Origin: Candidatus Microgenomates bacterium
GTDB lineage: Bacteria; Patescibacteriota; Microgenomatia; UBA8517
DNA: 64,000 nt
Assembly (NCBI GenBank): GCA_049519355.1
Contig: JBEKQV010000003.1
Coordinates: 19,646 to 83,645 of the forward strand
Direction: 5' to 3'
The notes under the pieces were generated by a model, which ran no database searches, was not told the origin of the DNA, and saw only the letters and a list, made by a program, of their open reading frames with translations. Shown piece after piece: positions 2,889 through 31,395 of the stretch. Positions within the stretch are counted from its first letter, which is position 1, and each line of letters starts with the position of its first letter. Made by a program: the position numbers and the translations under genes.

Positions 2889-3515
2889 TCAATAGGTTTT
2901 GAATAGGAGTTTTAGTGTAGATTTTGTCATAAGTATCAGGGTGAACCACATTATAGATAAGTCAGTAACGGCAGAGCCGTTTTCCACATAATTGCGGTCA
3001 AGTTTCATCCATTCCTTGAAAGAAAGCCTGTGTGATCCGTTTACAACCCAATTACTGGTTATACCGGGATTGACAAGTTCTCTAACTTTCTCTCCACGGT
3101 TAAGCTTTCGTGCCTCACCAATGGGGAATGGTCTCGGCCCAACGATACTCATTTCGCCCTTGAGGACGTTTATTATTTGGGGTAGTTCGTCAAAACCGGT
3201 TCTTGAAAGGGCCTTCCCAAATTTTGTAAACCTGGGATCATCTTTAATTTTAAAAACAGGTCCGTCAGCTTCGTTGAGTTTTTTGAGCAGGGATTGTTTT
3301 TGGGAAGCACTAGGCGTCATCGTCCTGAATTTGAATATTTTAAATATTTTTCCGTTTTTGCCAACACGGTTTTGAAGAAAAAAAATATCACCTTTCTCAG
3401 TGAGTTTAATTGCCAGTGATGTTAGAGACGCAATAGGAAGTGTAACAATGAGGATAATTATAGAAACCGAAACATCCAAAAACTTTTTTGCAAATGAGGT
3501 GTGATAATCATTCAT
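2889..3515 (-). CDS. Small PglC/WbaP-type initiating sugar phosphotransferase (polyprenyl-phosphate hexose-1-phosphate transferase)
   Basis: Single N-terminal TM helix followed by the hallmark bacterial sugar transferase motifs FKFRTM, DELPQ and GEMSIVGPRP. Length ~208 aa matches PglC-like monotopic PGTs. Confidence 0.85.
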   Translation of the reverse strand: MNDYHTSFAKKFLDVSVSIIILIVTLPIASLTSLAIKLTEKGDIFFLQNRVGKNGKIFKIFKFRTMTPSASQKQSLLKKLNEADGPVFKIKDDPRFTKFGKALSRTGFDELPQIINVLKGEMSIVGPRPFPIGEARKLNRGEKVRELVNPGITSNWVVNGSHRLSFKEWMKLDRNYVENGSAVTDLSIMWFTLILMTKSTLKLLFKTY

Positions 3516-3520
3516 TTAGG

Positions 3521-4510
3521 TCAGAATAAGTTGGCCCAGATAATCATTGCCTCTTTTAGTTTCTTGAAATATATTCCTTTCGGAAATTTAATTTTCTGAG
3601 CCAGTTCAATATAACATGATTTCGGGTTGTTTCCTTTCAAATTTAATTCCTCGACAGATTTCCATAGAATCTCATTAATTTTCATTCCTTTCAGCTCTTT
3701 TGTACGGTTATGTCCCGTGATTGAGGCTTTTTTGTGATTAACGAAAGGGGATCCATTGACAACACCGGTTTTCAGGTGATCCATTATTTTTTTTGAAAAT
3801 ATTCCGGCCCAAATGTCGTCGTATCTGTCATAACTCCATAGTTTTCCTTTGGGATCAGTTCCCATCATTGGGAAAAACATAATCGGTGTCACCTCCCGTT
3901 TAAACGCAAGGTTCATACTACACATCGGATAAAAAAGTCCAAATGGAATAAATTGGGTTAATGGTGGATAATTCTTCTCGTTCAAAATTTTTGGAAGTTT
4001 GATTTCTGTTTTTGCATCCAGGTCAAGTGCTCCGGACCATAGGCCGTGACTTACACTTACGGAATGAACATCTCTATTTTTGTAGGGGAAACCACGGGTG
4101 AACATCCATTTGGGGTTAGGATATGTTGCTTGCCAACCCACCGGTATTTTCCTTCTTAGATTCTCCAAGTGTTTTTTGACAAAATCTTTTTCGGCAGGGT
4201 AGCAGTCATCGTCAATCGTAATGATTACGTCCGCTCCGGCATTATAGGCTTCCCAGAAGCCAAAGGAACGAATTCCTGCATTTTTTCGGGAAAATATCCA
4301 CGATTTTTTACCAAATTCTTCTTCAATATCTTTGTGGGAGAAGACGGTAACTGAGGAAAACTTTAAATCTGGAATTTTGGCTTTTTTCTCCCACCGGTCT
4401 TCAACAATAATCAGGTGACAACCTGAAAATTCATTCTTCCATCTATTTAGAAATGACAAATTTCTTATTGTAGGAATAACAACGAATACTTTTATTCTTT
4501 CATTCTTCAT
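3521..4510 (-). CDS. GT75 family protein (reversibly glycosylated polypeptide / UDP-arabinopyranose mutase-like)
   Basis: VVIPTIRNLSFLNRWKNEF...HLIIVEDR and IITIDDDCYPAEKD align closely with plant RGP1 (IVIPTIRNLDFLEMWRPFF...HLIIVQDGD and IFTIDDDCFVAKD). The ORF-track start at 4531 is TTG; I use the internal ATG at 4510 (MKNERIKVF), which removes the overlap with the next gene. Confidence 0.7.
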   Translation of the reverse strand: MKNERIKVFVVIPTIRNLSFLNRWKNEFSGCHLIIVEDRWEKKAKIPDLKFSSVTVFSHKDIEEEFGKKSWIFSRKNAGIRSFGFWEAYNAGADVIITIDDDCYPAEKDFVKKHLENLRRKIPVGWQATYPNPKWMFTRGFPYKNRDVHSVSVSHGLWSGALDLDAKTEIKLPKILNEKNYPPLTQFIPFGLFYPMCSMNLAFKREVTPIMFFPMMGTDPKGKLWSYDRYDDIWAGIFSKKIMDHLKTGVVNGSPFVNHKKASITGHNRTKELKGMKINEILWKSVEELNLKGNNPKSCYIELAQKIKFPKGIYFKKLKEAMIIWANLF

Positions 4511-4522
4511 GGTATATATTCT

Positions 4523-5344
4523 ATGCACCAAGTTGGTAAACTTGATATAACACTTGCATTAGGCGAATTTATCATGACACGAATCGAAACACAACAATTT
4601 TTTGAGCTTCTCTGGGGGATGACCGAAAGAGAACTTCGGGCAAGGTATAAATATACTGTTTTCGGATTTTTGTGGATTGTATTGAACCCTGCATTTCAAA
4701 TGTTAATAATTGGTTTCATCTTCAGGTTTTTTATGAAAGAGCCAGTTCAGAATTATTACTATTTTCTTTTTATTGGACTTTTGATTTGGAATTTTTTCTC
4801 TTTATCTTTATCGAAAGCAACTCCCTCAATAGTTTTTGAAAGGACGCTTATAAAGAAAGCGAAGTTCTCGCGTTCGATTATCCCCCTGGCAATTGTTTTT
4901 TCTAATTTTGTTCATTTAATGGTCGCGATGGTTCTTCTTACCGTTCCGGTACTTTTTCTTAACACAATGACCATTACGAGTATTTTCTATATTTTAATCG
5001 CATTTGTTCTACTTCTTGTATTTACGTCGGGTATAAGCCTTCTTTGCGCAGCTTTAGATGTCAGATTTCGTGATGTTAATTTTTTTGTACAGGCATTTAT
5101 AATTTTTTGGTTTTATGCAACGCCGATAATATATCCATTATCAATTGTCCCTTATCAGTATTATTGGCTTTGGCGTTTTAATCCGATGACTGAGATGCTT
5201 CAATTTCTTCAGCACGGTTTCTTGGGGATGCCGCTTCCCGGAACGGCGATGATTATTATAAATACTATGCTAATAATAACCGTGGCGGCTGCGGGGATAT
5301 GGGTTTTCGGTAAAGAAAGTAAAAATTTTGACGATTGGGTATAA
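4523..5344 (+). CDS. ABC-2 type polysaccharide exporter permease (Wzm/TagG/KpsM-like)
   Basis: Six predicted TM segments and a conserved N-terminal ELLWGMTERELRARYKYTVFGFLW motif typical of Wzm/TagG. Immediately upstream of an ABC ATPase. Confidence 0.8.
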   Translation: MHQVGKLDITLALGEFIMTRIETQQFFELLWGMTERELRARYKYTVFGFLWIVLNPAFQMLIIGFIFRFFMKEPVQNYYYFLFIGLLIWNFFSLSLSKATPSIVFERTLIKKAKFSRSIIPLAIVFSNFVHLMVAMVLLTVPVLFLNTMTITSIFYILIAFVLLLVFTSGISLLCAALDVRFRDVNFFVQAFIIFWFYATPIIYPLSIVPYQYYWLWRFNPMTEMLQFLQHGFLGMPLPGTAMIIINTMLIITVAAAGIWVFGKESKNFDDWV

Positions 5345-5349
5345 ATAAT

Positions 5350-6060
5350 ATGAAAATAGATAAAGATTACGCTATTGAACTTTACGGAATTTCAAAAAAA
5401 TATACTATTCATCACGAAAAACCAACTCTTGTCGAGAAGTTTTTTAAGGGACGGGATGAAAAATTTTTGGCGCTTAATAATATTAATTTAAAAATAAATA
5501 GAGGAGAAAGTGTCGGAATAATCGGGGATAATGGTTCCGGCAAGACCACACTTCTAAAAATAATAGCCGGAATTACGGCTCCATCATCCGGTATTATAAA
5601 AGCCGGTGGCAGGGTTGTATCGATAATAGATCTCAATGCCGGTTTTCATGATGATTTGAGTGGGTTTCAGAATATATATCTGAATGGGATGTTTCTTGGC
5701 ATGACAAAAAAAGAAATTGATAGAAAATTAAGGGACATTATTATTTTTGCAGGAATCAGACAATTTATTGACGCGCCTCTTTTTACCTATTCTCAGGGGA
5801 TGAAATTACGTCTCGGTTTTTCCGTGGCCATACATAGCAATCCTGATATTTTACTTCTCGATGAGAATTTTTCTGTAGGAGATGAAAAATTCAAAAAAAA
5901 ATGCAGAGATATTATTAAAAAATTTAGAAAACAAAAGATGACATTATTAATCGCAAGTCACTGGAAACAGTTTATAGACCAAAACTGTGAACGGATAATC
6001 ACTTTAAAAAACGGAAAAATAATAAAAGATATCCATCCCGGTTTAAAGACAAAATCATGA
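5350..6060 (+). CDS. ABC transporter ATP-binding protein (Wzt/TagH/KpsT-like), short form without C-terminal carbohydrate-binding domain
   Basis: Walker A GDNGSGKTTLLKI, signature motif and Walker B LLLDE. The ORF-track start at 5335 is TTG; the ATG at 5350 follows the Wzm stop. Confidence 0.85.
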   Translation: MKIDKDYAIELYGISKKYTIHHEKPTLVEKFFKGRDEKFLALNNINLKINRGESVGIIGDNGSGKTTLLKIIAGITAPSSGIIKAGGRVVSIIDLNAGFHDDLSGFQNIYLNGMFLGMTKKEIDRKLRDIIIFAGIRQFIDAPLFTYSQGMKLRLGFSVAIHSNPDILLLDENFSVGDEKFKKKCRDIIKKFRKQKMTLLIASHWKQFIDQNCERIITLKNGKIIKDIHPGLKTKS

Positions 6061-6767
6061 AGGAGACAACTTTAAAAAAATTTCATTTGAGAAAGGCTTA
6101 TTCTATTTATCGAAACATAAAATGGTCCTTCTTCGACCACAGTTTAGTTAGAAAAGACATTGTTTATAGATTGATTAATCATTACGGAGGCGATTCAGGA
6201 CATAAGATAGAAACCCCCAGCGGCAATTTAGGTTTCGGGTTTATACATTATTGCATAATAAGGAATATCAGGCCGGCAAAAGTTTTATGTATAGGTTCAA
6301 GAATGGGTTTTGTTCCCGCGATATGTGCCTTAGCTTGTAAAGACAATCGATACGGTGTGGTGGAATTTGTTGATGCAGGGTTAGATGAGAGTGATAAGAA
6401 AAGCTGGTCGGGTATAGGTTTTTGGAAAAAAACGGATTTAAAGAAGCACTTCAATGTATCTAAGCTTAATAACTGGATTAATACTTACATAATGACATCA
6501 CAGTCTTTTGCGGATGCATACCCTAAGTGGAAATATGATTATATTTACATAGACGGTGACCATTCTTATGGTGGAGTAAAATTGGATTTCAAATTGTTTT
6601 GGCCGCGGCTTAATAAAAACGGGTTCATGGTGTTTCATGATGCAACAGTTAAAAATTGGGGATCTTTAAAAGGATTCGGTGTCTGGAAATTCCTTAAAGA
6701 AAATAAAAATAGACACAAAATAATTTTTCCTCTCAATGAATCCGGTCTGGCAATATTGCAAAAGTAA
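6057..6767 (+). CDS. Class I SAM-dependent methyltransferase, TylF/MycF-like (family 3 sugar O-methyltransferase; Methyltransf_24)
   Basis: SAM motif I VLCIGSRMGF and the YIDGDHSY motif characteristic of the TylF/MycF/CmcI family. Start ATGA overlaps the Wzt stop. Confidence 0.55.
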   Translation: MKETTLKKFHLRKAYSIYRNIKWSFFDHSLVRKDIVYRLINHYGGDSGHKIETPSGNLGFGFIHYCIIRNIRPAKVLCIGSRMGFVPAICALACKDNRYGVVEFVDAGLDESDKKSWSGIGFWKKTDLKKHFNVSKLNNWINTYIMTSQSFADAYPKWKYDYIYIDGDHSYGGVKLDFKLFWPRLNKNGFMVFHDATVKNWGSLKGFGVWKFLKENKNRHKIIFPLNESGLAILQK

Positions 6768-6776
6768 TGAATTAAA

Positions 6777-8027
6777 ATGTTCGGAATTAAAACTTTCATT
6801 CAAAAAAGAATTATTTACCCTTCGTATCTTTTTCCGGAAAAAAACGGTAAATTTCCGTCGAAGCCGGTTTCCCAAATAAAAATAAATTCCAGACTTTTTG
6901 CCTTAGAAAACAAACTAAAAGAACAAAGGAGTCTTTCGGGGTATGGCAATCTAATAACTTATCCGCGTCGAGATGCAATAAATGTTTGGAAAAGATTGAT
7001 TAACCTTAACCCCAACAATCTTGGTAATTGGTCTATTCGGGAAGTTGTTCCCGGACACGACGCGGCGGAAATTGAACGGGATTTAATTTTTAAAATGGTT
7101 GATCTTTATCATGGTGATAAGAAGAACCTTGAAGGATATGTAACCAGTGGAGGAACTGAAGCTAATATTTTTTCGGCTTGGGTCGGCTGCAAAAGTTTGC
7201 AAAAACGTGGTATCCAAAGACAACAAATGTGTTTAATAAAAACCAGCCTTACACATTATTCAGTCGGCAAAGCAGCAGATGTTGTAGGAGTACCAACCTA
7301 CGTAGTTGGTTTAGACGAGAAGGAGTGGTCCATGGACGTTAACGGTTTTGTTAAAAAGATCGAAAAGTTATCAAAAAGCGGTATGAAGGGTTTTCTCATT
7401 CCTTTGACACTGGGTTATACGGTTACGGGAACGGCGGACCCCTATGAAAGAATATGTATAGAGATCAAGAAACTTAAAGAACAATATGGAGTGGAGTTTT
7501 TTGTTTGGATGGATGCAGCCTTAAACGGGCTTATAGAACCATTTTTAAATAAAAAATTCAGCCCCTTTGAATTATCGGAAATTCAAATTTTTTTGACCGA
7601 TTTTCACAAATTTGGTTTTGTCCCGATTCCGTCCGGGGTAGTTTTATACCGGAGGAGACTACGAAATTTAATTGAAAAGCAAATTGACTATTTGGATGAA
7701 AAAGATAATACCTTGTTAGGATCGCGAAGCGGTATAGCTCCGGTTGCGTGTTGGACGATTATAAATACATTAGGCAAGAGTGGATTTAAGAAAATAATAA
7801 AACGTAATCTAAACAAGAAACAACAATTTATGAGTATATGCAAGAATAGACACCTTTCCATTATCAATAGTGAACGCAGTCTAAACTGTGGAATTATCTT
7901 AAAAGATATGGCTTTATTTGATAAGAAATTTTCAAATAAATACGGCCTTAACTTTAGGAAGATGAAGTTAATGTTTATATCAAAAAATTCTGAATATAAT
8001 ATTGCAAAAGCATTTTTTCTGAAGTAG
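6777..8027 (+). CDS. Group II PLP-dependent decarboxylase (MfnA / glutamate-decarboxylase-like)
   Basis: TSGGTEANIF matches the MfnA/GAD N-terminal motif. DFHKFGFVPIPSGVVLY matches the PLP-lysine region SGHKFGLAPLGCGWV of group II decarboxylases. Confidence 0.7.
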   Translation: MFGIKTFIQKRIIYPSYLFPEKNGKFPSKPVSQIKINSRLFALENKLKEQRSLSGYGNLITYPRRDAINVWKRLINLNPNNLGNWSIREVVPGHDAAEIERDLIFKMVDLYHGDKKNLEGYVTSGGTEANIFSAWVGCKSLQKRGIQRQQMCLIKTSLTHYSVGKAADVVGVPTYVVGLDEKEWSMDVNGFVKKIEKLSKSGMKGFLIPLTLGYTVTGTADPYERICIEIKKLKEQYGVEFFVWMDAALNGLIEPFLNKKFSPFELSEIQIFLTDFHKFGFVPIPSGVVLYRRRLRNLIEKQIDYLDEKDNTLLGSRSGIAPVACWTIINTLGKSGFKKIIKRNLNKKQQFMSICKNRHLSIINSERSLNCGIILKDMALFDKKFSNKYGLNFRKMKLMFISKNSEYNIAKAFFLK

Positions 8028-8059: not shown

Positions 8060-8971
8060 ATGCTTATAACTTTCACAACGACTCAACCTAATATTCCCCT
8101 CAAAATCAAAGATTTAGAAAGAATCGGCAAGTTGGAAGTACTTAAAGGAGTTTATAATAAAAGTGCCAAAACAAAAGATATCCTTTCGAGAACAGAGATT
8201 TTACTTGCCAACCCTAAGTATTTTGGAGTTATTGACAGGAAGGTTATTAGTTTATTTAAAAATTTAAAATATCTTTTTTTAATGTCCTCGGGGTTTGACT
8301 GGGTGGATATCGATTATGCCAAATCCCGAAATATTATAGTTGGGGGAGCTAGGGGGACAACTTCTATAAGTGTTGCCGAACATGCTTGGGCTCTCGCTCT
8401 TACGTTGGCAAAATCTCTCCAAAATGTAACAACCAATTCCGCCGGAGTTATTAATACGCAGATTCATGGAAAAACAGTGGGGATATTTGGTTACGGATAC
8501 GTTGGAAAGGCAATAGCAAATATTGCACAAGGCTTCGGTGCCGAAGTTTGTTATACCTCAAGCCACAGATTAAAAGATTTGAGAAATAGACGATTTTTAA
8601 ATAAAGATGAACTATTAAGGAAATCCGACATAATATTTCTTTGTTTGCCATTAACAAAAGATACTAGAAATTATTTAAGTTCGGGTGAAATAGAATTATT
8701 AAAAAAGAATGCAATATTGATTAACACGGCAAGAGAAGATCTGGTAGAAAACAAACCGCTTTTTAAGGCATTGAAAACAGGTAGACTTTTTGGTTATGGG
8801 ATTGATACGGATAAACGAAATTCAACTTTCCTCAAAAAAAATAGGCAACTGCGCATTGTATCAACATTCCACGCGGCGTATCGGACCGCAGAAGCGCTTG
8901 AAGCAATATATTCCGATACTGCAAAAGATGTTGAAGCTTTTATAAAAGGGAAGCCGCTAAGTATTTTATAA
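8060..8971 (+). CDS. D-isomer-specific 2-hydroxyacid dehydrogenase (glycerate/phosphoglycerate dehydrogenase-like, no ACT domain)
   Basis: NAD-binding GKTVGIFGYGYVGKAIA...GAEV, catalytic Arg in ILINTARED and His in STFHAAYRT. Confidence 0.75.
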   Translation: MLITFTTTQPNIPLKIKDLERIGKLEVLKGVYNKSAKTKDILSRTEILLANPKYFGVIDRKVISLFKNLKYLFLMSSGFDWVDIDYAKSRNIIVGGARGTTSISVAEHAWALALTLAKSLQNVTTNSAGVINTQIHGKTVGIFGYGYVGKAIANIAQGFGAEVCYTSSHRLKDLRNRRFLNKDELLRKSDIIFLCLPLTKDTRNYLSSGEIELLKKNAILINTAREDLVENKPLFKALKTGRLFGYGIDTDKRNSTFLKKNRQLRIVSTFHAAYRTAEALEAIYSDTAKDVEAFIKGKPLSIL

Positions 8972-9683
8972 ATCTGGATCTCAGTAAATTTTCAAATCTC
9001 TTCAGATCGTGTATAAGAAGATTTATATTATTGTAGTTGAAATCACCAACATTATTTTTGCCCCAGTTATTTATAAAAATTGTTTTAAAACCGAGTTTAC
9101 CGGCAGGAACTATGTCCTGTTTTTCGGAGTCGCCGACATAAATTACATGGTCAGGAAGTATCCGGCCAAGGGATTTTAAAAGTAAATTAAAAGATTTTTT
9201 TGAGGGTTTAAGCTCGTCGAGGTCATTGGTGGTAATTATTTTGACGAAAACTTCCGACGGATTTTTTACTCCCAACTTATGAAGAGAGTTGAAAGTTTGT
9301 TGGATATCGGAATTTGTGAATAGAAAATTTTCCTTTGAACTTATTTTGAAATAGTTGGCCAATTTTAAGTTTTGACGAACGTATTTATCCTTTACGATTC
9401 CTTTTTCGATAGTAAACATAAGTTTTTTTGTATTTAAATTGCCGGTTTCCCGGATAATATCAATCCAATCCACCCCTTTTCTTTCGAGTTCAATAAAATT
9501 ATTTTTATTATTTTTGCTTTGCCTGACATAATACTGAATATATTTTTTACGAAGATGATTAATAAGCGAGGGATTAAAATACAAAGTACCGTCCAAATCC
9601 CAAACAATTATTTTTGCGTGCGAATAATCCTTCAGCAGCAAAAGCAAAGTTTTGTATCTTTTTAATTTTTTTGATAAAGTCAT
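8940..9683 (-). CDS. HAD-superfamily hydrolase (phosphatase)
   Basis: Motif I IIVWDLDGTL (DxDGT) and motif IV VIYVGDSEKQDIVPAGKLG. It is the lone minus-strand gene in a plus-strand run and overlaps the 3' end of the dehydrogenase gene by 32 bp. Confidence 0.65.
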   Translation of the reverse strand: MTLSKKLKRYKTLLLLLKDYSHAKIIVWDLDGTLYFNPSLINHLRKKYIQYYVRQSKNNKNNFIELERKGVDWIDIIRETGNLNTKKLMFTIEKGIVKDKYVRQNLKLANYFKISSKENFLFTNSDIQQTFNSLHKLGVKNPSEVFVKIITTNDLDELKPSKKSFNLLLKSLGRILPDHVIYVGDSEKQDIVPAGKLGFKTIFINNWGKNNVGDFNYNNINLLIHDLKRFENLLRSRFIKYLAASLL

Positions 9684-10932: not shown

Positions 10933-11700
10933 ATGTCAAATTATTTTTTAAACATATTTGAAACCAGATTTAAAAAGTTATATGGCAATGGAATTTTCAA
11001 TTTAAACGACGATATATTGTCAAATGCTGAAGTATTGGATGCTATCGAAAAAATGCCTGATGACGGCACCAAGGAGATTGCTAAATTTGTTACGACCAGG
11101 TTTGGTTTAAACAAAAAAATAAAGAAAATAGTTATCTTGGGTTCCGGTAGCGGAAAATTAGGAACCCGACTGGCGGATTACTTTAAAAATTCAATAATTG
11201 TAGATATCGACAAAAGCAGTCCCGTTATAAAGAGATTAAAAAATATTTTTAATAGGGACAAATTAAGAATGCCAAAACTTGGTGACGCACGTAACATACC
11301 GCTTGAAAAGGGTAGCGTTGATTTAATAGTTGCCTATAGCACCCTGAGGTATATAAATGATAGACGCAAAGTAATAGAAAGTATCAATAAGATTTTAAAA
11401 TCTGGTGGCTATGCCGTAATTGTAGAGGCAAGAGCAATAGATGTGGTGGAGGATATTGAATCCACCCTGAAAAATAAAAGAATTGCTTTTACCCGTAATA
11501 CGGAAAATAATATTCTTTTTTCGAGAACAAGTTTTTTTTATTACCTGGTTCTGGAATCTTCTAAAAACAAGATTTTGAAAAACAGGATTGAAAAAGTTGA
11601 AAACAAGAACAATTCGAGTTTTTTGGAGGCGGCTTTGAAATGTGCAGGCAAGTATAAAGGCTCGCTTTATTATGTAAGCTGGCAAAAGAAAAATGGTTAA
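10933..11700 (+). CDS. Class I SAM-dependent methyltransferase (Methyltransf_11/25-like)
   Basis: Motif I VILGSGSGKLG, post-I acidic DID and motif II/III VDLIVAYSTLRYI...LKSGGYAVIVE. Confidence 0.7.
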   Translation: MSNYFLNIFETRFKKLYGNGIFNLNDDILSNAEVLDAIEKMPDDGTKEIAKFVTTRFGLNKKIKKIVILGSGSGKLGTRLADYFKNSIIVDIDKSSPVIKRLKNIFNRDKLRMPKLGDARNIPLEKGSVDLIVAYSTLRYINDRRKVIESINKILKSGGYAVIVEARAIDVVEDIESTLKNKRIAFTRNTENNILFSRTSFFYYLVLESSKNKILKNRIEKVENKNNSSFLEAALKCAGKYKGSLYYVSWQKKNG

Positions 11701-12799: not shown

Positions 12800-12900
12800 T
12801 GAAATCGGGCGCCGGCTCCATTTTTGATACATCCGTCCGTGTTTGCCCGTAGATTGCATGCGAAATTGATTATATTTATAATGACGGATACCCGCGCGTG

Positions 12901-18263: not shown

Positions 18264-18264
18264 T

Positions 18265-19950: not shown

Positions 19951-19951
19951 T

Positions 19952-24974: not shown

Positions 24975-26128
24975 AAATAAATATTCTTTATAACTTTTCC
25001 GAAAGAAGCTAAAGCCTGGGCTTCGGAAAATCTTTTAGCGAGTTTAATGGATCTCTTTCCCAATACTTTTCTGTTATTGGTCGGCATACTAAAAAATGTA
25101 TTTAGCTTAAGTAGGATTTCCTCCGGGGAATCGTTTTTAAGAATAAGGGTGCTGTCTAGTTTGCCGAGTAATTCCTTAAGATTTCCTACGGGTGTCCCAA
25201 TTACGGGAGTTCCTGAAGCAAGCGATTCTAAAACGACAAGCGGCGAATTTTCCAACTTTGACGGAAGTACTAATACATCTGAGTTTTTGTAGTATTGAAT
25301 TAAGTTGTGCTTCGGTGGATCTTTTTTAATTCTTGTGTTTTTTTTGACTCCAAGATGTTTGATTAGGGAAATCATCTTTCTTTCCATCCCCGGTTCGGCA
25401 CTTGAGGAAGGGTACACTACAAAGAGTAGAGCTTTTGAGTTTGTCTGAATAAATTTAGCGAAAGCTTTGATTAAATTGAGTACACCCTTATATTCAAACA
25501 GTCTTCCGGCATATAGAATTACGTGACGGCCCACCGGTACTTTGTTATTCCTGGAATAAAAACAATTGGTTACTATATTCTGAACTATATATATTTTTTT
25601 AGGATTTAGCAGTGGGTTATTGGTCAAAAGATATTGCTTTGCGTATAAGGACGGGACGATGACGGCATTTGAAAATGACCATGAGAATTTTTCAAAAAGT
25701 TTTGTAAAAATTTGTCGATAGTTATATTTTTGTATTCCGAGATCGGACACACTTCTTGTTCCGTGGAATGTAAATATCACCTTTGCATGTTTTCCTGAAA
25801 CGCTTATTGCCGACAACGCCGTTAGGTAATCGGCGCTCATAATAAAATTAATATTGTTTTGTTTAAGCGTTTGCTTTATTTGTTTTCGAACTTCTAAAAA
25901 ATTGTTGACGTTGTTTGGAAGAAAAGTAAACCTACCTTTTGAGTTAATTTTTTTTAGAAACGATTTTTCTCTGAAAAGCTTGAGATCCGGTTTAAATTTT
26001 TTCTTAAAGGCAATTAGATAAAAGTTGGATCCTGGGTTAGCTGCTTTAAATGCCTCATAAAGTCTTGTTAATGCCACCCATTCACCTCCTTCAGTCAGCT
26101 CGGCTAGAACAAGAAAATTATATTTCAT
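24971..26128 (-). CDS. GT4 glycosyltransferase (GT-B)
   Basis: PSKLENSPLVVLESLASGTPVIGTPVGNLKEL E-X7-E motif and typical N-terminal GT4 domain. Confidence 0.8.
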   Translation of the reverse strand: MKYNFLVLAELTEGGEWVALTRLYEAFKAANPGSNFYLIAFKKKFKPDLKLFREKSFLKKINSKGRFTFLPNNVNNFLEVRKQIKQTLKQNNINFIMSADYLTALSAISVSGKHAKVIFTFHGTRSVSDLGIQKYNYRQIFTKLFEKFSWSFSNAVIVPSLYAKQYLLTNNPLLNPKKIYIVQNIVTNCFYSRNNKVPVGRHVILYAGRLFEYKGVLNLIKAFAKFIQTNSKALLFVVYPSSSAEPGMERKMISLIKHLGVKKNTRIKKDPPKHNLIQYYKNSDVLVLPSKLENSPLVVLESLASGTPVIGTPVGNLKELLGKLDSTLILKNDSPEEILLKLNTFFSMPTNNRKVLGKRSIKLAKRFSEAQALASFGKVIKNIYL

Positions 26129-26152: not shown

Positions 26153-27676
26153 ATGAAGTCGGCAATTTTAACAAGTTTAAAAAGGCGAATTCTATCAAGT
26201 TCTGAAAACTATATTTTATTTGTTTTTTTTCTTGCGGACCTAACTTTTCTTATAAAAATTGTTGGCGGAAATGCATGGGTGACTATTTTTTTCTTTCTTC
26301 TTCTTATTGTATTGATTTGGATAAAAATACGTGACTGGGCGCTTAGTTCGTTACTTGTTACAATTTTCTCTTTTCAATTTTATCTACCGAATAAATATTA
26401 TCCCATTGAGGTTTTTAGACCATATGAACTGCAGCCGGGTTTTGGACCTTATTTTTTGAGTTACGGCATAAATTTGGAAAATATTTTTTTGTTAATTACG
26501 CTAATCCTGATTATCAGGAATCTAATTTTAAAAAAGTCGGTTTTTCCAAAAAAAAGTATAACTTACATTTTACCGGCGATATTTTCCGCGATATTGTTTT
26601 TTCTTATTTCTCTTTATTCCTCTCTTAGATTTTCGCCATATTCAAGTTTGTCAGTAACATGGCTTTTACAGGACATACAGTTGTTTTTAGTTGGTTTTTC
26701 GGTATTTTATGTATTTTTTAAAAAACGCAGTGATTTAAAATTGATTTCTCCTGTAATTCTTTCATCCATAGTTCTTCAATCAGCCGTTTCGATTATCCAA
26801 TTTGTAAAACAATCTTGGGCGGGTTTACCTATTGAGAGCTTTATTGTTGAAACGATTTATTACGGGTCTCCTGATGCTGTGCATTCGTATTTTCGTGTTG
26901 CCGGAACATTCGGACATCCGAATCAATTGGCATTAATTCTTTGCGCAATGCTTGTTTTAATTCTCCCGCAAGTTATAGGAGAGAGAAAACCTGTTTATAT
27001 ATTGGGGTCATTTATTACCGTTTTGGTAATTCTTTTGACCCAAAGCCGTTCGGGGTGGTTGGCTCTTTTTGTGGTTATTCTTCTTACGACAATCATTTAT
27101 AGAAATGAATTGTTAAAACCCGTTTCCAAACTGGCGATTAGACGAATAGCTGTCTCGATTACACTTGTGATTGCGGTGACGCTTGCGGTTGCTGTTCCCC
27201 GGATTGTTGCAAGTTTTAACGCGTTTTATCAAAATGCCGGTTTTCCTCTAAGAATTGAAATGGCTAAAGAAGCAATCTTGGCAATAGCTCAAAACCCTTG
27301 GCTGGGGTATGGGATGGGTACCAATGAACCGGTTTTGTTCAGGTTATTTCCAATGGGTTACATTTATTCATTTCCAGCACCCATTCATATGGCATATTTA
27401 CAAATGATTTTGGAGAGTGGTATTCTTGGATTTCTTTTCTTTATGTTTCCTTTTGTTTATATAATCAGGTGTATAATCAACCGGTTCTTGTTATACGGAG
27501 CTAAAAAAATAGCAAGGGCCAAAAATTATATTTTTATTACACTCGCGGGGATTTCAGCTTTTGGTTCTTTTTATCTTTTCCTCCCATATGAGGGATTCAG
27601 GGAGTTTGCATATCTGGGGATAATATTCGGTTATGGTATGATATGTCTCCAGCCATTTAAAGCTTTTCCAAAATGA
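26153..27676 (+). CDS. O-antigen ligase / Wzy-like polytopic membrane protein
   Basis: About 12 TM helices and the Wzy_C-type motif LTQSRSGWLALFVVILL in a periplasmic loop. Confidence 0.55.
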   Translation: MKSAILTSLKRRILSSSENYILFVFFLADLTFLIKIVGGNAWVTIFFFLLLIVLIWIKIRDWALSSLLVTIFSFQFYLPNKYYPIEVFRPYELQPGFGPYFLSYGINLENIFLLITLILIIRNLILKKSVFPKKSITYILPAIFSAILFFLISLYSSLRFSPYSSLSVTWLLQDIQLFLVGFSVFYVFFKKRSDLKLISPVILSSIVLQSAVSIIQFVKQSWAGLPIESFIVETIYYGSPDAVHSYFRVAGTFGHPNQLALILCAMLVLILPQVIGERKPVYILGSFITVLVILLTQSRSGWLALFVVILLTTIIYRNELLKPVSKLAIRRIAVSITLVIAVTLAVAVPRIVASFNAFYQNAGFPLRIEMAKEAILAIAQNPWLGYGMGTNEPVLFRLFPMGYIYSFPAPIHMAYLQMILESGILGFLFFMFPFVYIIRCIINRFLLYGAKKIARAKNYIFITLAGISAFGSFYLFLPYEGFREFAYLGIIFGYGMICLQPFKAFPK

Positions 27677-28506
27677 AACACATAACTATCTTTAAGAGAA
27701 AAGTGACGTATTTTGATTTTATTTTGGGAGGCGTATTTATAATAGTAATGCTTGGGGTTTTCCTGTTTTTATATAGAAAAAACGAATACGTAAATATCCG
27801 TGTAAAAGTAACGGATCAGGATGTTCTTTACGCATCTACCGATCCAAAAAGCTGGTATGCTAACCGATTTGAAGTGGGGGATATTGAATTGGACGAACTT
27901 GGGAGGACGATAAGCCAGATAACCGGCGTTGAAACTTTTAATATGAGTCCGGATACAAAAGCTGTTTATCTGGACATTAAGATTAAAGCGGTTTATGACA
28001 GACGTACAAAATTGTATTCGGCGCGGGGAATCAATCTAACTTTTGGAAACACGATCAGATTTAATTTTTCTAACGCCTCTTTTTATGCATTGATTACAGA
28101 ATCGCCTGGCACATTAAATCAAAAAGATCTAACGGTTGAGGAAAAGGAAATAACCGTTTTGGAACGGGGGCCTGCTTTAAACTCTTCAGCCGATTCGATT
28201 GAACCCGAAGTTTTGGAAAAGATTAAAAAGGGAGATGAGATTACCGATTCAAACGGAGATACCTTGGCGGAGGTCGAAAACGTGGTCCTTAGGCCCGGCC
28301 AACGGGTTGTACAAAACGCTGCTGGAAACCTTCTTCTCAGATATGACCCTTACTACAAGGATGCAATAATTACACTTAAAATACGGGTTGAAAAATATAA
28401 AGGAGATGAATTTGTTTTTGATAATGTTCCTTTAAAGCTCGGTTCCTATTTACCGTTAAATTTCACTTATGAAAGTATCTGGCCTGTTATAACGGATATT
28501 AAATAA
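27673..28506 (+). CDS. Hypothetical membrane-anchored protein
   Basis: N-terminal TM helix, no recognisable catalytic motifs. Embedded in the GT locus and start-stop coupled to the preceding gene. Confidence 0.3.
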   Translation: MKHITIFKRKVTYFDFILGGVFIIVMLGVFLFLYRKNEYVNIRVKVTDQDVLYASTDPKSWYANRFEVGDIELDELGRTISQITGVETFNMSPDTKAVYLDIKIKAVYDRRTKLYSARGINLTFGNTIRFNFSNASFYALITESPGTLNQKDLTVEEKEITVLERGPALNSSADSIEPEVLEKIKKGDEITDSNGDTLAEVENVVLRPGQRVVQNAAGNLLLRYDPYYKDAIITLKIRVEKYKGDEFVFDNVPLKLGSYLPLNFTYESIWPVITDIK

Positions 28507-29637
28507 CTCTTCCAGAATTTTAATATACTTTGTGAGGATTTTTTCTTGGAGAAAGTCGGCCGCCCTAATTTTTGCCATGTTAGAGTAATGTTTGCGCTTC
28601 GTTCCGTCGCTTAGAAGTTTAACAATCGCTTCAGCTAGGGCGTTAGAGTTGCCGACGGGGACTAAGATACCGTATTTATTCTTGCCAATAATTTCAGAGG
28701 GCCCGTAATTGCAGTTTGAAGCAACTACCGGGATTCCTCCTGCCATTGCTTCCAAGATAGAAAGGGGAAGTCCTTCCCATTTTGTTGAAAGAACAAAAAC
28801 TTTTGAGCTGTCCAGTAGTTTTGTCGGATTTTGCACCCAACCGAAAAACTTAACTCTCTGGGATATACCGAGTTTTTCGGCTAGGGACTTTAACTGATTT
28901 TTTAAAGGACCATCCCCAACTAACCACAATTCCGAATTGGGTATTTTATTTGCAACAATTTTAAACGCCCTAAGAAGCGTCACGTGGTCTTTTTGCACAT
29001 CCAATCTGGCTGTTGAAATAACAATTTCTTTCCCGCGGGTTTCAACTGCCGTTCTCTTTTCAAAGTAGCGTGCAGGTAATATTTCTCCGATTGAGGTAGG
29101 GATTTTCCTCAATTTTAAGTCTCTGGAAAGGTCGCGCGACATTTTTTTTGCGACTGTCACAACAGCATCTGACTTATTCAGAAAAAGTGCCAAAGAATAT
29201 TTTACGGGTTTGCGTAAGTACTTACCCAGTCTGATGTTTATCACCTTTGTCAGGTTGTTGTGGATAACACTTATTGTTTTATATTTGAGATTGAACAGAG
29301 ACCTAACTGCTTCTGAAATTAGGATTGAATGCGGGTCTGAAGAAAGTACAATATCTGGCTTAAAATTTTGAACCGCTTTCTTGAACCACATTCCTTCTCT
29401 GATAAACATCTGTATATTTTTCCGGTTAAGACTGTATTTATCGGGAATTTCCCGTTTTTGTGAGAAAAACGAATATTCTCGGATATTGATAGTTCTAAAT
29501 AAGGGTTTTTCCAGAACAAGGACCTTCATAATTAGTTGACCCGGCTTAAACATTTTCTTTAGACCAAGGAGGCCTTCCGCATACGTTCCGGTTCCTCCGT
29601 CAACACTTCTTTGAAGAACTAATAGTTTTAACTTCAT
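28456..29637 (-). CDS. GT4 glycosyltransferase (GT-B)
   Basis: WEGLPLSILEAMAGGIPVVASNCNYGPSEII E-X7-E motif. Confidence 0.8.
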   Translation of the reverse strand: MKLKLLVLQRSVDGGTGTYAEGLLGLKKMFKPGQLIMKVLVLEKPLFRTINIREYSFFSQKREIPDKYSLNRKNIQMFIREGMWFKKAVQNFKPDIVLSSDPHSILISEAVRSLFNLKYKTISVIHNNLTKVINIRLGKYLRKPVKYSLALFLNKSDAVVTVAKKMSRDLSRDLKLRKIPTSIGEILPARYFEKRTAVETRGKEIVISTARLDVQKDHVTLLRAFKIVANKIPNSELWLVGDGPLKNQLKSLAEKLGISQRVKFFGWVQNPTKLLDSSKVFVLSTKWEGLPLSILEAMAGGIPVVASNCNYGPSEIIGKNKYGILVPVGNSNALAEAIVKLLSDGTKRKHYSNMAKIRAADFLQEKILTKYIKILEELFNIRYNRPDTFISEI

Positions 29638-30308
29638 TGACGGATTATATAATGTCCTTCCACTTCACTGTGTAAGTAACCGACCGGCTTGGGAATATTA
29701 AGTCTAATACTGTCGTTGCGGTATGCTTCACACAAAATATTTGCCCAGCCCTTGGTGAATTTCAGACAGTAATTCATTTCGCGGCTTACATCATCCGATT
29801 TGCCGACAGAAAAATAATAATTAATAAGCTCTGCATGAAACTCAGGGAATTCGGGATTATTATAGATGGCCTTGCTAAGTAGAGTAGGGGTTAACTCAGG
29901 GTGACCATTATTGTATGCGATTAAGGCTAAATTGTAATAAATTCGGCCCAGTCCCTGATCTTCGTTGTTTTTTAGATCACTGGCAGTAAGGCTCCCGAGA
30001 TAGTTTGTAAAAAGAATTTTAAGACTGTCATCGTTGGGAATTGTGAGGGCTTTGTCAAAATCTGCTGGAAGAAGATTACGGTATGGATCATATTCTCCAT
30101 ATATATTTATCCGCGATGCCAAAGACAACTCAGTCATTGCCTTTTCGAAGTTTCCGTTTTTGGCGTCGGATATTGTGTTTTCGATAAAATATTTATTTAA
30201 GAATATTGAGCTTTGTGAAGCGGGATCCGATAAATAATTGACGATTTCGGACACAAAAAAAAGGAGGGTAATACCCAGGATAATAAGGAATATTTTCATT
30301 TTAGTCAT
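29634..30308 (-). CDS. Hypothetical signal-anchored protein with helical (TPR-like) repeats
   Basis: N-terminal TM/signal MKIFLIILGITLLFFV. The rest is helical-repeat-like with no catalytic motif. Confidence 0.3.
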   Translation of the reverse strand: MTKMKIFLIILGITLLFFVSEIVNYLSDPASQSSIFLNKYFIENTISDAKNGNFEKAMTELSLASRINIYGEYDPYRNLLPADFDKALTIPNDDSLKILFTNYLGSLTASDLKNNEDQGLGRIYYNLALIAYNNGHPELTPTLLSKAIYNNPEFPEFHAELINYYFSVGKSDDVSREMNYCLKFTKGWANILCEAYRNDSIRLNIPKPVGYLHSEVEGHYIIRQ

Positions 30309-30333
30309 TCCAGCTATACTATACTTTAGTTAA

Positions 30334-31395
30334 ATGAGAATCCAATCGCGAATACATCCTTGGGACCACTTCTTTCTTGTCAGCACATTCATAATTTTAA
30401 TATTAATTGGAATCGGAATCGATACAAGTTTTATTTTGGTCCTGGTATTATTGAATGTTTTGGCTGCCCTTATTTATAAATATATAAATATTGGGAAAAT
30501 AGAAATTCCCAAAAACTACTTTCTTTACGTGATCTTTTTGTTGGTTTTGCTGGTTCATACTCGGCTTTTCCATGGCAATATCCTTTTTCTCCAGCTTTTG
30601 TCTATAGGCGGCTTATTGTGGCTTGAGGTTTATAATTTCAGAAGATTATTTGCGAAATATTTTGCTCCGATATTAATTACTCTGGGAATGCTGATGAGCG
30701 GAATATATATTTATTCTCTTAGATTTCCGGTAAATTTGCCCAATTTGTTGGCTTTATTCAAAGCGCCTCCAGATTTAGCCAGGCATGTTGTTATCGGTGA
30801 TCTCTGGGCCGTAATTTTGGTGGCAGTTTTTTATTTATTTTTTAGAAAGAAATCGTATTTTTACTTACCCCTTATTGGTTTGGGGCTGTACTTCCTGGCA
30901 ATTTCATATTCCCGCTCGGCGCTTCTTGCACTCGCTGTCGGGATTTTCTATATTTTTCAAAAGTCGGTAAACCGGAAAAAACTTAAGAATATAATTTTGG
31001 TTTTGTTTGTTATTATTACGGCTCTTTTTGTTTATTTCGCTACTGTAAAAAGTCTTTTGTTCTCACGCGTATACTTTTTTCAGGCAATAATCGGATTTTT
31101 CCGTTTTCCACTTGGAACGGGGATTGGTAACTTTACTTATTTGACCAACTTGGCGGATTTGGTGCATGATTTACCCCTCGAGGTATTTTCGGGGATGGGA
31201 ATTTTTTCGGTGGTTTTTCTGGTCTGGCTTTACAAGATTTTGAAGCAAATGTTAACGGTTAAGAAAATTAACGTAGAAGCGGTAGCTATATTTCTGGCGA
31301 TTTTAATTGATTTTTGTTTTTATACAACCTATACGATCCCTATATTTATCGGGATATGGTTCCTAAGTCTGGCGCTTACAGAAAATACCACCTAG
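30334..31395 (+). CDS. Second O-antigen ligase / Wzy-like polytopic membrane protein
   Basis: Multiple TM helices and ISYSRSALLALAVGIFY, similar to the Wzy_C motif in 26153..27676. Confidence 0.5.
   Translation: MRIQSRIHPWDHFFLVSTFIILILIGIGIDTSFILVLVLLNVLAALIYKYINIGKIEIPKNYFLYVIFLLVLLVHTRLFHGNILFLQLLSIGGLLWLEVYNFRRLFAKYFAPILITLGMLMSGIYIYSLRFPVNLPNLLALFKAPPDLARHVVIGDLWAVILVAVFYLFFRKKSYFYLPLIGLGLYFLAISYSRSALLALAVGIFYIFQKSVNRKKLKNIILVLFVIITALFVYFATVKSLLFSRVYFFQAIIGFFRFPLGTGIGNFTYLTNLADLVHDLPLEVFSGMGIFSVVFLVWLYKILKQMLTVKKINVEAVAIFLAILIDFCFYTTYTIPIFIGIWFLSLALTENTT

Follow-up and report, generated by a model that had tools for sequence, protein, structure and literature searches.

A predicted build, export and ligate locus for a surface glycan in a Candidatus Microgenomates bacterium

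We analysed a 64,000-nucleotide stretch of a Candidatus Microgenomates genome (contig JBEKQV010000003.1, positions 19,646 to 83,645; hereafter the window, with all coordinates given within it). Positions 2889-31395 (28.5 kb) hold about 25 contiguous genes, packed densely on both strands, nearly all of which have glycan-related domains in Pfam and NCBIfam. We read them as one cell-surface glycan locus of the candidate phyla radiation (CPR), with an ATP-binding cassette (ABC)-dependent pathway in which a glycan is built inside the cell, exported and then ligated; the probability of this reading is, in our estimate, about 60%. A single pathway is favoured because the locus has one priming phosphoglycosyltransferase (PGT) and neither Wzx nor Wzz, because in related loci the exporter genes abut, or lie within about 10 kb of, a Wzy_C–DUF4330 gene set, and because the Wzy_C–DUF4330 pair is itself conserved.

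Exporter, ligase candidates and priming enzyme

The exporter genes, wzm (4523-5344, plus strand) and wzt (5335-6060, plus strand), overlap at 5335-5344. Wzm is an ABC-2 permease by Pfam (ABC2_membrane, 60 bits), and its NCBIfam match to the galactan permease Wzm/RfbD (71 bits) lies below the cutoff. Only seven PDB entries matched it at E<=1, all of them polysaccharide- or teichoic-acid-type ABC permeases or unnamed 'transport permease' entries. These include 6oih and 6m96, which we take to be Aquifex Wzm, as well as TarG (6jbh) and a mycobacterial permease of the O-antigen/lipopolysaccharide (LPS) type (9qfx). The 241-aa Wzt is an ABC ATPase (Pfam ABC_tran). In NCBIfam it scores highest with TagH (181 bits) and then with galactan Wzt (166.6 bits), in neither case reaching the equivalog cutoff, and lower with DrrA (122.5 bits). 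Neither Pfam nor NCBIfam found a C-terminal carbohydrate- or cap-binding domain, or any other extra domain, in this protein. The two proteins belong to the polysaccharide-type exporter family, and their predicted substrate is a lipid-linked glycan.

The better supported of two ligase candidates is a 507-aa membrane protein of the Wzy_C family, WaaL/PglL type (26153-27676, plus strand; Pfam Wzy_C 74.2 bits, cutoff 31.7). Single-sequence PDB searches with this protein, and with the 353-aa protein described below, gave no useful matches. When the 507-aa protein was combined with four CPR homologues into a profile (alignment A3), two PDB entries alone were matched, 9rmk, named 'Oligosaccharyltransferase' (E 6.9e-8), and the ligase WaaL, 7tpg (E 1e-7). 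R299, R367 and H412 of the 507-aa protein are invariant in A3 and align with the SR, R and HN motifs of both structures. Across the whole set of motifs, SR(S/T), R, PxxGxGxG and HN align, and His412 falls on His349 of 9rmk, presumably the essential histidine of PglL. We predict that the 507-aa protein is a glycan ligase or an O-oligosaccharyltransferase. A literature search found no paper on O-antigen ligases in CPR bacteria.

The second candidate, a membrane protein of 353 aa with about ten transmembrane (TM) segments (30334-31395, plus strand), is linked to Wzy_C at the family level. The protein itself has no Pfam or NCBIfam match, a PDB search with its family profile (A2) came back empty, and Foldseek placed its model, in which the catalytic loop at residues 239-288 has pLDDT <50, on no PDB entry at E<=0.001. 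Nine of its 14 homologues match Wzy_C (best E 1.1e-5). In hhalign, the family aligned with the five Wzy_C proteins of A3 at 98.3% probability (E 1.3e-14, 239 columns); this signal appears only with the five-sequence profile, the probability against the 507-aa sequence alone being 1%. R194, R245 and H278 of the 353-aa protein align with R299, R367 and H412. These similarities suggest that it is a remote WaaL/PglL-like paralogue.

The start of the next gene, encoding a membrane-anchored DUF4330 protein of about 280 aa (27673-28506, plus strand; Pfam 36.1 bits), overlaps the end of the 507-aa Wzy_C gene in a translational overlap. The Wzy_C–DUF4330 pair is also found in related loci (numbered here with the prefix L) of several CPR lineages, namely L010/L011, L012, L044 and L045, while DUF4330 stands alone in L015. 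Since the pair is conserved and its ends overlap, DUF4330 may be a partner of the ligase. The longer layout of Wzy_C, DUF4330, family 4 glycosyltransferases (GT4) and 353-aa gene is likewise present in L044 and L045, where the 353-aa homologues lie near pilin or PilN genes; the pilin genes of L044 are a few kb away. Just upstream of the 353-aa gene, on the minus strand, lies a gene for a 224-aa protein (29634-30308) with one N-terminal TM helix and no family match above noise. The idea that this protein and a 230-aa protein are split-off TPR tails of a Wzy_C–TPR fusion such as that in L007 was rejected, as no similarity was found.

Priming would fall to a small monotopic polyprenyl-phosphate glycosylphosphotransferase of 208 aa, a PglC-like PGT (2889-3515, minus strand), with a Pfam Bac_transf score of 186.8 bits, an NCBIfam match to the EPS_sugtrans C-terminal domain (221.7 bits), a single N-terminal hydrophobic helix and the motifs GFDELPQ...GPRP. 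It is the sole priming enzyme of the locus. Among the locus open reading frames (ORFs) of at least 80 aa, Pfam and a TM scan revealed neither a Wzx flippase (MOP family/Polysacc_synt) nor Wzz, and the only multi-TM proteins are Wzm, a GT-C glycosyltransferase and the two Wzy_C-like proteins.

An earlier note on this DNA, made from the letters alone, had treated the meeting of an ABC exporter with Wzy-like proteins as unusual, and had offered two explanations for it, two separate glycans or an oligosaccharyl-ligase step. The combination is not anomalous, because ABC-dependent pathways normally end with a ligase of the Wzy_C family. Pfam Wzy_C is the O-antigen-ligase family, which supplies WaaL to O-antigen biosynthesis and WsaB to the glycosylation of the Geobacillus S-layer. 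Other CPR loci show the same ordinary design of export followed by ligation: in the Shapirobacteria locus L010/L011, wzt and wzm directly abut a Wzy_C–DUF4330–GT4 set, and in L012, L013 and L009 the exporter genes and the Wzy_C–DUF4330 set lie within about 10 kb of each other. Of the two explanations, the ligase step fits best, given the matches to 9rmk and 7tpg, the one PGT and the absence of Wzx and Wzz, and two glycans are disfavoured. The note had also asked for a comparison of WaaL-type and Wzy-type signatures. The profile proved nearest to an oligosaccharyltransferase and to WaaL, with the His/Arg/Arg set kept, and a polymerase role for one of the two Wzy_C-like proteins is the less likely reading.

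Glycosyltransferases, tailoring enzymes and the QueC-like cassette

Chain extension is represented by four GT4 domains. Three are separate genes on the minus strand, a TuaH-like GT4 at 16631-17788 (Pfam Glyco_trans_1_4 and Glycos_transf_1, about 30 bits; NCBIfam TuaH 91.7 bits, below cutoff) and two others at 24971-26128 (Glycos_transf_1, 102.3 bits) and 28456-29637 (Glycos_transf_1, 137.3 bits). The fourth forms the N-terminus of a 1340-aa fusion protein. A PMT/ArnT-like GT-C enzyme, of the type that depends on polyprenyl-phosphate sugars, is encoded at 14007-15395 (plus strand; Pfam PMT 33.9 bits, cutoff 22.7). It has at least seven TM segments and bears the NCBI name 'phospholipid carrier-dependent glycosyltransferase'; a single-sequence PDB search with it gave no useful matches.

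Between the PGT gene and wzm lies a gene for a GT75/RGP-type homologue of nucleoside diphosphate (NDP)-pyranose-furanose mutases (3521-4531, minus strand; Pfam RGP 176.7 bits, covering almost the entire model, cutoff 23.8). In the PDB it matches the UDP-arabinopyranose mutase 8cid (E 1e-27) and MtdL 7xpr (E 2.5e-14); the plant UDP-arabinopyranose mutase, at 100.6 bits, is the nearer relative, MtdL reaching 56.5 bits. Like plant UAM/RGP, MtdL and Hyg20, it has a full-length RGP domain, a DDD motif (residues 107-109) and a conserved arginine, Arg146, which aligns with the autoglycosylated arginine of the plant enzyme. The DDD motif binds Mn and the arginine is nucleophilic in the characterised enzymes (PMC9937993). 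Only two bacterial GT75 enzymes, MtdL and Hyg20, have been characterised, both from antibiotic pathways and both acting on GDP-sugars (PMC9937993); by contrast, the present homologue belongs to a locus for a surface glycan. Its predicted role is to provide a furanosyl sugar nucleotide, and the glycan would then contain a furanose. An exact sequence look-up of this protein gave no match, and its TTG start is the likely cause.

The 1340-aa protein (20952-24974, minus strand) has one TM helix at about residues 380-398, which divides it, in the Pfam-based domain order, into a cytoplasmic GT4 and an extracytoplasmic part made of a PQQ-like beta-propeller, an Ig-like DUF5060, a GH5-like TIM barrel of clan GH-A and a C-terminal beta-sandwich. 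The C-terminal 941 aa correspond to stand-alone proteins of about 970 aa in nine relatives and are GT4-fused in one other. In the corresponding alignment (A4), the GH-A catalytic motifs WELANE (N267-E268) and AEQG (E343), which stand for the Asn-Glu acid/base and the Glu nucleophile of this clan, are invariant. The C-terminus has no Pfam glycoside hydrolase match above threshold, and a PDB sequence search was marginal (4n0r, E 0.071). The AlphaFold2 model, of moderate quality (pLDDT 69.8), had as its best Foldseek matches the GH5 mannanase 9gmj (E 2.8e-22, TM-score 0.65) and 4n0r. By analogy with many exopolysaccharide loci, in which glycosidases remodel the polymer, the outer part of the protein probably trims or remodels the exported polymer.

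The tailoring genes begin directly behind wzt with a SAM-dependent methyltransferase of the Methyltransf_24 family (6057-6767, plus strand; Pfam 57.2 bits). A Methyltransf_24 gene accompanies the QueC-like gene in seven of nine related loci (homologues of 44-59% identity in L009, L010 and L012-L016) and is also present in L047 and L049. Because it adjoins wzt and co-occurs with the QueC-like gene, this enzyme is a candidate chain-end (capping) or sugar O-methylase. It is followed by a pyridoxal phosphate (PLP)-dependent group II amino-acid decarboxylase (6777-8027, plus strand; Pfam Pyridoxal_deC 51.6 bits), which scores 158.5 bits with the NCBIfam model for histidine decarboxylase and 128.3 bits with that for MfnA, under the cutoff in both cases, and which is predicted to make an amine. 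Decarboxylase orthologues adjoin the QueC-like gene in L010, L016, L018 and L048, and a group IV Orn/Arg decarboxylase takes this place in L009 and L047. Next come an NAD-dependent D-isomer-specific 2-hydroxyacid dehydrogenase (8060-8971, plus strand; Pfam 2-Hacid_dh_C 118 bits) and, on the minus strand, a HAD-family hydrolase, a probable phosphatase (8940-9683; Pfam HAD_2 44.5 bits). Downstream of the QueC-like gene (9803-10786) lie a class I SAM methyltransferase of the Methyltransf_11 family (10933-11700, plus strand; Pfam 53.4 bits) and a DegT/PseC-like sugar-nucleotide aminotransferase (11693-12799, plus strand; DegT_DnrJ_EryC1 321.9 bits; NCBIfam PseC 257.8 bits, below cutoff).

A 368-aa adenosylhomocysteinase-like NAD-binding protein (12898-14004, plus strand) matches PDB adenosylhomocysteinases down to E 2.1e-13; it has no Pfam match above threshold and scores 48.7 bits in NCBIfam against a cutoff of 275. 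It could recycle S-adenosylhomocysteine or oxidise a sugar, and no homologue of it was found in any related locus. This divergent gene sits between the DegT and GT-C genes, with MetK (40967-42049) 27 kb away. Further along are an FAD-dependent oxidoreductase of the amine-oxidase fold, PRK07233 family (15358-16641, minus strand; NF005560 412 bits, cutoff 252; Amino_oxidase 96.3 bits), and a NodU/CmcH-type O-carbamoyltransferase (18151-19950, plus strand; Carbam_trans_N 266.8 and Carbam_trans_C 220 bits). The true start of the latter is probably at 18265 (561 aa), 114 nucleotides downstream, as given by other gene callers. Just upstream of it, gene calls in independent assemblies place a 50-aa DUF5989 protein (17929-18081, plus strand; 31.9 bits, cutoff 27). 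A membrane-anchored SGNH/GDSL-like protein with an N-terminal TM helix (19937-20947, plus strand; Lipase_GDSL_2 28.9 bits, below the cutoff of 32.9) is a possible O-acyl esterase or transferase.

Also part of this set is a 327-aa QueC-like PP-loop ATPase (9803-10786, plus strand; Pfam QueC 49.1 bits), for which NCBI and JGI give the name '7-cyano-7-deazaguanine synthase'. This name is probably an over-annotation, because the protein scores 38.8 bits with the NCBIfam QueC model TIGR00364 against a cutoff of 150.3, because the YPDC substrate motif is not conserved in its family alignment (A1), and because no queD or queE gene lies beside it, its neighbours being glycan genes; it is not a canonical QueC. 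The motifs YPDC and VPxRN are the published substrate motifs of QueC (PMC13329287). What is invariant in A1 is the PP-loop motif SGGxDS (S52 to S57) and a C-terminal zinc motif, C(x)7CGxCxxC, formed by C256, C264, C267 and C270. The best PDB matches are Cap9 (9nto, 2.5e-8) and QueC (3bl5, 5e-5). We tried, and rejected, the QueC-like gene and the 'GT4-conflict' matches as a defence island: PADLOC gave only domain-level QueC/QatC hits and none of the QatC or Cap9 partner genes (qatA/B/D; CD-NTase and Cap10). An NCBIfam match to N-acetyl sugar amidotransferases (WbpG/WbuX) was likewise absent at E<=0.001. Our best guess is an ATP-dependent, carboxylate-activating enzyme predicted to form an amide, in which the amine would be the decarboxylase product or a DegT-made amino sugar and the carboxylate a uronate or a 2-hydroxy acid.

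The clade to which this enzyme belongs is small. A word-indexed search gave 16 matches, and an exhaustive profile search 229 representative clusters at E<=1e-30. In 11 of the readable contexts, nearly all of them, the clade lies beside or close to wzm/wzt, usually together with Methyltransf_24, in glycan loci of the CPR type; a 2026 survey of the PF06508 family does not describe it (PMC13329287). Two sub-architectures can be told apart. One has the gene order QueC-like, Methyltransf_11, DegT and 2-hydroxyacid dehydrogenase in L007, L012 and L014, and the first three of these only in L013. The other has Methyltransf_24, decarboxylase, QueC-like gene and PqqD in L009, L010, L016 and L047, with L049 lacking the decarboxylase. 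The cassette in the window mixes elements of both, and the window contains no PqqD and no S24/S26 domain. Several of the loci used here (L013-L016 and L019) come from records titled as 'uncultured Gammaproteobacteria' or 'Pseudomonadales' third-party-annotation metagenome-assembled genomes (MAGs), with proteins 39-52% identical to those of the Microgenomates locus; these taxonomic labels look doubtful.

In relatives at least, the company of the QueC-like gene suggests that the enzyme acts on a peptide. PqqD, which resembles the recognition element (RRE) of ribosomally synthesised and post-translationally modified peptide (RiPP) enzymes, adjoins it in five loci (L009:9705-10007, L010:5307-5570, L016:2713-2985, L047:4622-4882 and L049:4751-5011). 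QueC–PqqD fusions also exist, 43 of the 150 best family representatives being at least 390 aa long. One example, P0103 (L046:8001-9248), has as neighbours genes for YcaO, a nitroreductase, 'ScmC' and a further PqqD, and a Wzy_C gene is found 6 kb off; this context looks RiPP-like. In L009 (12680-13717), L010 (5584-6591), L016 (1656-2702) and L047 (4900-5895), long Wzt ATPases of the glycan-export type end in what would be a cytoplasmic S24/S26 peptidase-like domain of the SipW/Sec11 kind (Ser...His-Arg...GD). The QueC-like protein P0061 carries the same domain as a fusion, with a Peptidase_S24 score of 26.1 bits that exceeds the cutoff and a blastp match to the Wzt tail of L010 at E 1.6e-17. 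A literature search found no paper on the QueC–PqqD association.

Since relatives carry PqqD and S24/S26 peptidase domains, a simple sugar-tailoring reading of the cassette is complicated, and two other proposals can be made from the same observations. In one, which we offer as a speculation that is unlikely to be right as it stands, the Methyltransf_24/decarboxylase/QueC-like cassette, joined in relatives by PqqD and S24/S26 domains, would be an undescribed and largely CPR-specific system in which an amine, or else a ribosomal peptide, becomes conjugated to the glycan exported by the ABC transporter or to the end of its chain. If true, the system would join peptide maturation in the manner of RiPPs to the export of lipid-linked glycans, and the QueC family would gain a new class of reaction. 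In the other, the cassette, possibly with the adjacent ABC-2 exporter, would be a RiPP-like or small-molecule amidation and export module merely housed in CPR glycan loci. The five adjoining PqqD genes, the QueC–PqqD fusions, the surroundings of P0103 and the peptidase domains on four Wzt proteins and P0061 all point that way. Against this stand the absence of both PqqD and S24/S26 from the window and the presence of Methyltransf_11 and DegT behind the QueC-like gene, with the 2-hydroxyacid dehydrogenase close by, as in L007, L012 and L014. In addition, the permease and ATPase resemble Wzm/TarG and Wzt/TagH, not peptide exporters, and the loci with the cassette hold a PGT, glycosyltransferases and a Wzy_C protein and no other flippase. 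With these points on both sides, we regard a separate peptide module as an improbable account of the cassette.

Taken as an inventory, the locus agrees well with the earlier note, which had proposed a single large glycan locus of about 28 kb, heavily tailored, in a small, reduced genome. The gene classes that it named are there by Pfam and NCBIfam: the PglC-like PGT, Wzm/Wzt, the GT-C, several GT4s, the DegT, the carbamoyltransferase, the decarboxylase/QueC-like gene pair and two separate Wzy/ligase-like proteins, one recognised by Pfam and one by profile-profile comparison, both with residues of the ligase/oligosaccharyltransferase type. Its two to three methyltransferases come down to the two described here, no third having been found, and its SGNH hydrolase is a match that stays under the Pfam cutoff. 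Of the modifications it listed, amino, methyl and carbamoyl groups are backed by domain scores, whereas acylation hangs on the sub-threshold SGNH match and amide formation is our prediction for the QueC-like enzyme. A small genome is also supported: the longest contig carrying the ten proteins looked up in NCBI is 872,458 bp, of which the locus makes up about 3.3%.

One pathway and its alternatives

The pathway that we propose would begin with the single small PGT, which would prime polyprenyl phosphate with a sugar-1-phosphate, maybe of an amino sugar made by DegT. The four GT4 domains would then lengthen the chain in the cytoplasm, with the GT75 mutase providing a furanosyl nucleotide sugar. 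DegT and the NAD- and FAD-dependent oxidoreductases would give amino sugars, and the two methyltransferases and the carbamoyltransferase would decorate the glycan. At this stage the QueC-like enzyme might adenylate a carboxylate, either a uronate or a 2-hydroxy acid made by the 2-hydroxyacid dehydrogenase, and form an amide with the amine from the decarboxylase or DegT. The finished lipid-linked glycan would leave through Wzm/Wzt. Once outside, it would be moved en bloc to an acceptor by the WaaL/PglL-type Wzy_C enzyme together with DUF4330, through an O-oligosaccharyltransferase activity such as that of PglL or WsaB and with the S/T/P-rich anchored proteins downstream as candidate acceptors, and the short 353-aa paralogue might serve a second acceptor or glycan form. 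Finally, the GT-C enzyme could add sugars from polyprenyl-phosphate donors on the outer face, and the exported polymer could be modified or trimmed there by the SGNH-like protein and by the outer propeller and GH5-like part of the 1340-aa fusion.

The locus might instead make two glycans, with the left half (2.9-20 kb) producing an ABC-exported polymer and the right half (20-31 kb) a Wzy-type one, for which the 507-aa protein would be the polymerase and DUF4330 a co-polymerase or chain-length factor. In favour of this, the Wzy_C-type proteins number two and the GT4 genes fall into two groups; the right-hand block (Wzy_C, DUF4330, GT4s and the 353-aa gene) recurs in L044 and L045 with no ABC genes within the 10 kb shown, and the QueC-like/wzm/wzt block occurs without a nearby DUF4330 in L007 and L014. 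Yet L044 and L045 begin at the Wzy_C gene, so that upstream ABC genes could be out of view, and in L010/L011 wzm/wzt lie directly against Wzy_C–DUF4330. The single priming PGT also speaks for one product, as does the lack of Wzx, Wzz or a second exporter in the locus, and in the matches of the Wzy_C profile to an oligosaccharyltransferase and to WaaL the histidine typical of ligases is conserved. We consider two glycans quite unlikely.

We give a similarly low probability to a secondary cell-wall polymer of the teichuronic- or teichoic-acid kind, with TagGH-like export, attachment to peptidoglycan by an LCP enzyme encoded elsewhere, and Wzy_C in another role, for instance as a polymerase or lipid-anchor ligase. 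The best curated match of Wzt is TagH (181 bits), TarG is among the PDB matches of Wzm, and one of the GT4 enzymes is TuaH-like. The window also encodes a sortase (77.5 bits) together with TP-repeat, C-terminally anchored proteins (47322-50232), which looks like a Gram-positive-style wall in this CPR genome; the sortase and wall-anchored proteins suggest that such a wall would be thick. Upstream of the locus, a 309-aa gene (1219-2148) has a weak LytR_C match (E 0.0058). Against such a polymer, the locus contains no LytR_cpsA_psr catalytic domain, no polyol-phosphate enzyme of the TagF/TagD type and no UDP-glucose dehydrogenase, and it does encode two WaaL/PglL-like ligase candidates, which other CPR loci conserve together with the exporter.

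A chimeric assembly, which the earlier note had named as a possibility, or a mis-binning of the fragment might be suggested by the lower GC content of the locus (0.34-0.40, against 0.41-0.47 over most of the remaining window), but either has practically no probability. Twelve independent segments (L001-L006 and L050-L055), taken from assemblies of JGI, ENA and Logan, match the window at 99.99-100% identity and are collinear with it over 1693-37676, a span that takes in the entire locus and both junctions with its housekeeping flanks, and long contigs hold GyrA and DnaB together with the locus proteins. Low GC is usual for surface-glycan loci and variable surface-glycan islands. The flanks carry chromosomal housekeeping genes (KsgA, YebC, MetK, GyrA, DnaB, YchF and a HisZ-like gene), the exact DegT and Wzy_C proteins are each present on more than 20 contigs of JGI, ENA and Logan assemblies, and all ten proteins looked up bear an NCBI name of the form 'MAG: ... 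[Candidatus Microgenomates bacterium]'. Where assemblies seem to disagree, as over an SGNH gene that is split or a carbamoyltransferase that is shorter, the DNA is identical and the disagreement stems from the gene callers. For the same reason, L005 and L006 were rejected as strain variants without the carbamoyltransferase, their DNA being 100% identical and the gene calls alone differing. The mechanical ORFs at 18151-19950 and 35640-36950 are probably over-extended at their 5' ends, gene callers giving KsgA as about 271 aa on identical DNA.

Several points weigh against the proposed pathway of assembly, export and ligation. Wzt has no C-terminal cap-binding domain through which chain termination might be controlled, and the Wzy_C family also holds polymerases, so that the motifs alone cannot prove a ligase over a polymerase. 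No nucleotide-sugar dehydratase, pyrophosphorylase or uronate-forming dehydrogenase was found in the locus, and no polyprenyl-phosphate-sugar synthase was found for the GT-C enzyme. The substrate of the QueC-like enzyme may be a peptide and not a sugar, given PqqD, S24/S26 and the YcaO-associated, RiPP-like relative. As for the acceptor, the window contains neither S-layer nor pilin genes, and a prepilin motif scan of it was empty. Finally, lipid A gene content is judged from published CPR genomes, the view of this genome being the 64-kb window.

Candidate acceptors and comparison with known systems

A genome study of CPR bacteria reported no lipid A or LPS genes and proposed glycoproteins or a glycosylated S-layer, while stating that the architecture of the envelope remains unclear (PMC5220378). 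Lipid A is absent from the CPR bacteria examined to date (PMC5220378), which makes a surface protein the most probable acceptor. Plausible candidates, judged by their predicted sequences, lie immediately downstream of the locus at 31405-35665: a 188-aa TM-anchored protein with an N/S/T/P-rich linker (31405-31971, minus strand), a 466-aa protein in which a lipoprotein-like signal precedes 40 aa that are 70% S/T/P in a tract scan (32039-33439, plus strand), and a 730-aa, extremely Cys-rich secreted protein (33473-35665, plus strand; fn3 20.2 bits, sub-threshold). The lipoprotein-like signal of the 466-aa ORF is internal (MNRALRKLPIKVLGLTTIAAFLAG|C). A pilin was rejected as the adjacent acceptor, there being no prepilin motif anywhere in the window.

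Linkers rich in S/T/P or TP right behind a membrane anchor were seen in several predicted surface proteins, both at 31405-35665 and at 53229-54269. The sortase gene adjoins one whose 228-aa product contains the tract TPTPTPTPT and ends in a hydrophobic/basic tail, and a gene for a 550-aa DUF11 surface protein follows. A XerC/D-like gene lies at 40017-40970, and tRNA and Rfam scans of the window gave no matches.

Among described systems, the slg cluster of Geobacillus stearothermophilus NRS 2004/3a (WsaP, Wzm/Wzt, WsaE and WsaB), which serves O-glycosylation of the S-layer protein, offers a close parallel. Both belong to a monoderm-type organisation in which a PGT primer, cytoplasmic assembly, a methyltransferase by the exporter and Wzm/Wzt export are followed by Wzy_C-dependent transfer of the finished glycan to a surface protein, a step that is predicted for the present locus. 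Unlike slg, the present locus has no rml genes and no recognisable S-layer target, and its Wzt has no extra C-terminal domain. It has in turn two Wzy_C-like paralogues and a conserved DUF4330 partner, and it adds the GT75 mutase, the carbamoyltransferase, the QueC-like enzyme, the GT-C and an outer GH5-like domain; the comparison with slg is one of gene content.

With the ABC-dependent O-antigen pathways that end in WaaL (E. coli O9a, Klebsiella O2a), the locus shares a Wzm nearest to 6oih and 6m96, a match to WaaL (7tpg) with the Arg/Arg/His set, and the lack of Wzx and Wzz. The structures in this comparison set are Cupriavidus WaaL and Aquifex Wzm-Wzt. The locus differs in being primed by a PGT and not by WecA, in having no WbdD-like terminator and no carbohydrate-binding domain on Wzt, and in that the lipid A-core acceptor is reported missing in CPR (PMC5220378).

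The Neisseria pgl system (PglB/C/D, PglA/E, PglF and PglL) and Pseudomonas PilO/TfpO are similar in combining a small PGT, DegT, GT4 enzymes and a PglL-type Wzy_C enzyme, and the S/T/P-rich tracts of the nearby surface proteins resemble PglL acceptor regions. In contrast to pgl, ABC-2 export replaces the PglF/Wzx flippase, and no 4,6-dehydratase or acetyltransferase for a bacillosamine-type sugar is present. The window is also without the pilin genes that accompany the 353-aa homologue at a few kb in the relative L044.

For the QueC-like enzyme, the nearest functional parallels are ATP-dependent, carboxylate- or amide-directed enzymes in glycan loci, such as WbpG/WbuX/PseA and the glucuronamide module of Campylobacter jejuni HS:2. 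The logic of the HS:2 module is the formation of ethanolamine or serinol glucuronamide by an amidoligase of a different fold; as in that module, a PLP decarboxylase and a HAD phosphatase could supply the amine. The locus has none of the HisH/HisF-like ammonia donors of WbpG/WbuX/PseA, and relatives of the QueC-like enzyme carry PqqD or S24/S26 domains. The members of the QueC family with a known function are QueC, which makes preQ0, and Cap9 and QatC, which act in protein deazaguanylation in phage defence; the protein shares with them the SGGxDS PP-loop and the C-terminal four-Cys zinc motif. It is unlike them in having no queD/queE, CD-NTase or qatABD partners and in being about 100 aa longer than canonical QueC. 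It also keeps the canonical QueC order of motifs, whereas in the WbpG cluster the motifs are reversed (PMC13329287).

Nothing within the window breaks a known rule. The core logic of the locus, with lipid-linked assembly, ABC export and ligation, is known, while several of the component families are uncharacterised in this role. These include a QueC-family enzyme in glycan loci, a GT75 enzyme outside plants and antibiotic pathways, and a membrane-spanning glycosyltransferase–glycosidase fusion, each of which could represent new enzymology. No culture of the organism would be needed to study the ligases and the QueC-like enzyme, for which assays in E. coli or in vitro would serve. The surfaces of CPR/Patescibacteria are thought to mediate attachment to host cells. 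The locus provides a testable parts list for a CPR surface glycoconjugate, consisting of an exporter, two candidate ligases, a DUF4330 partner and adjacent candidate acceptors, and thereby bears on the poorly known envelope of these bacteria (PMC5220378).

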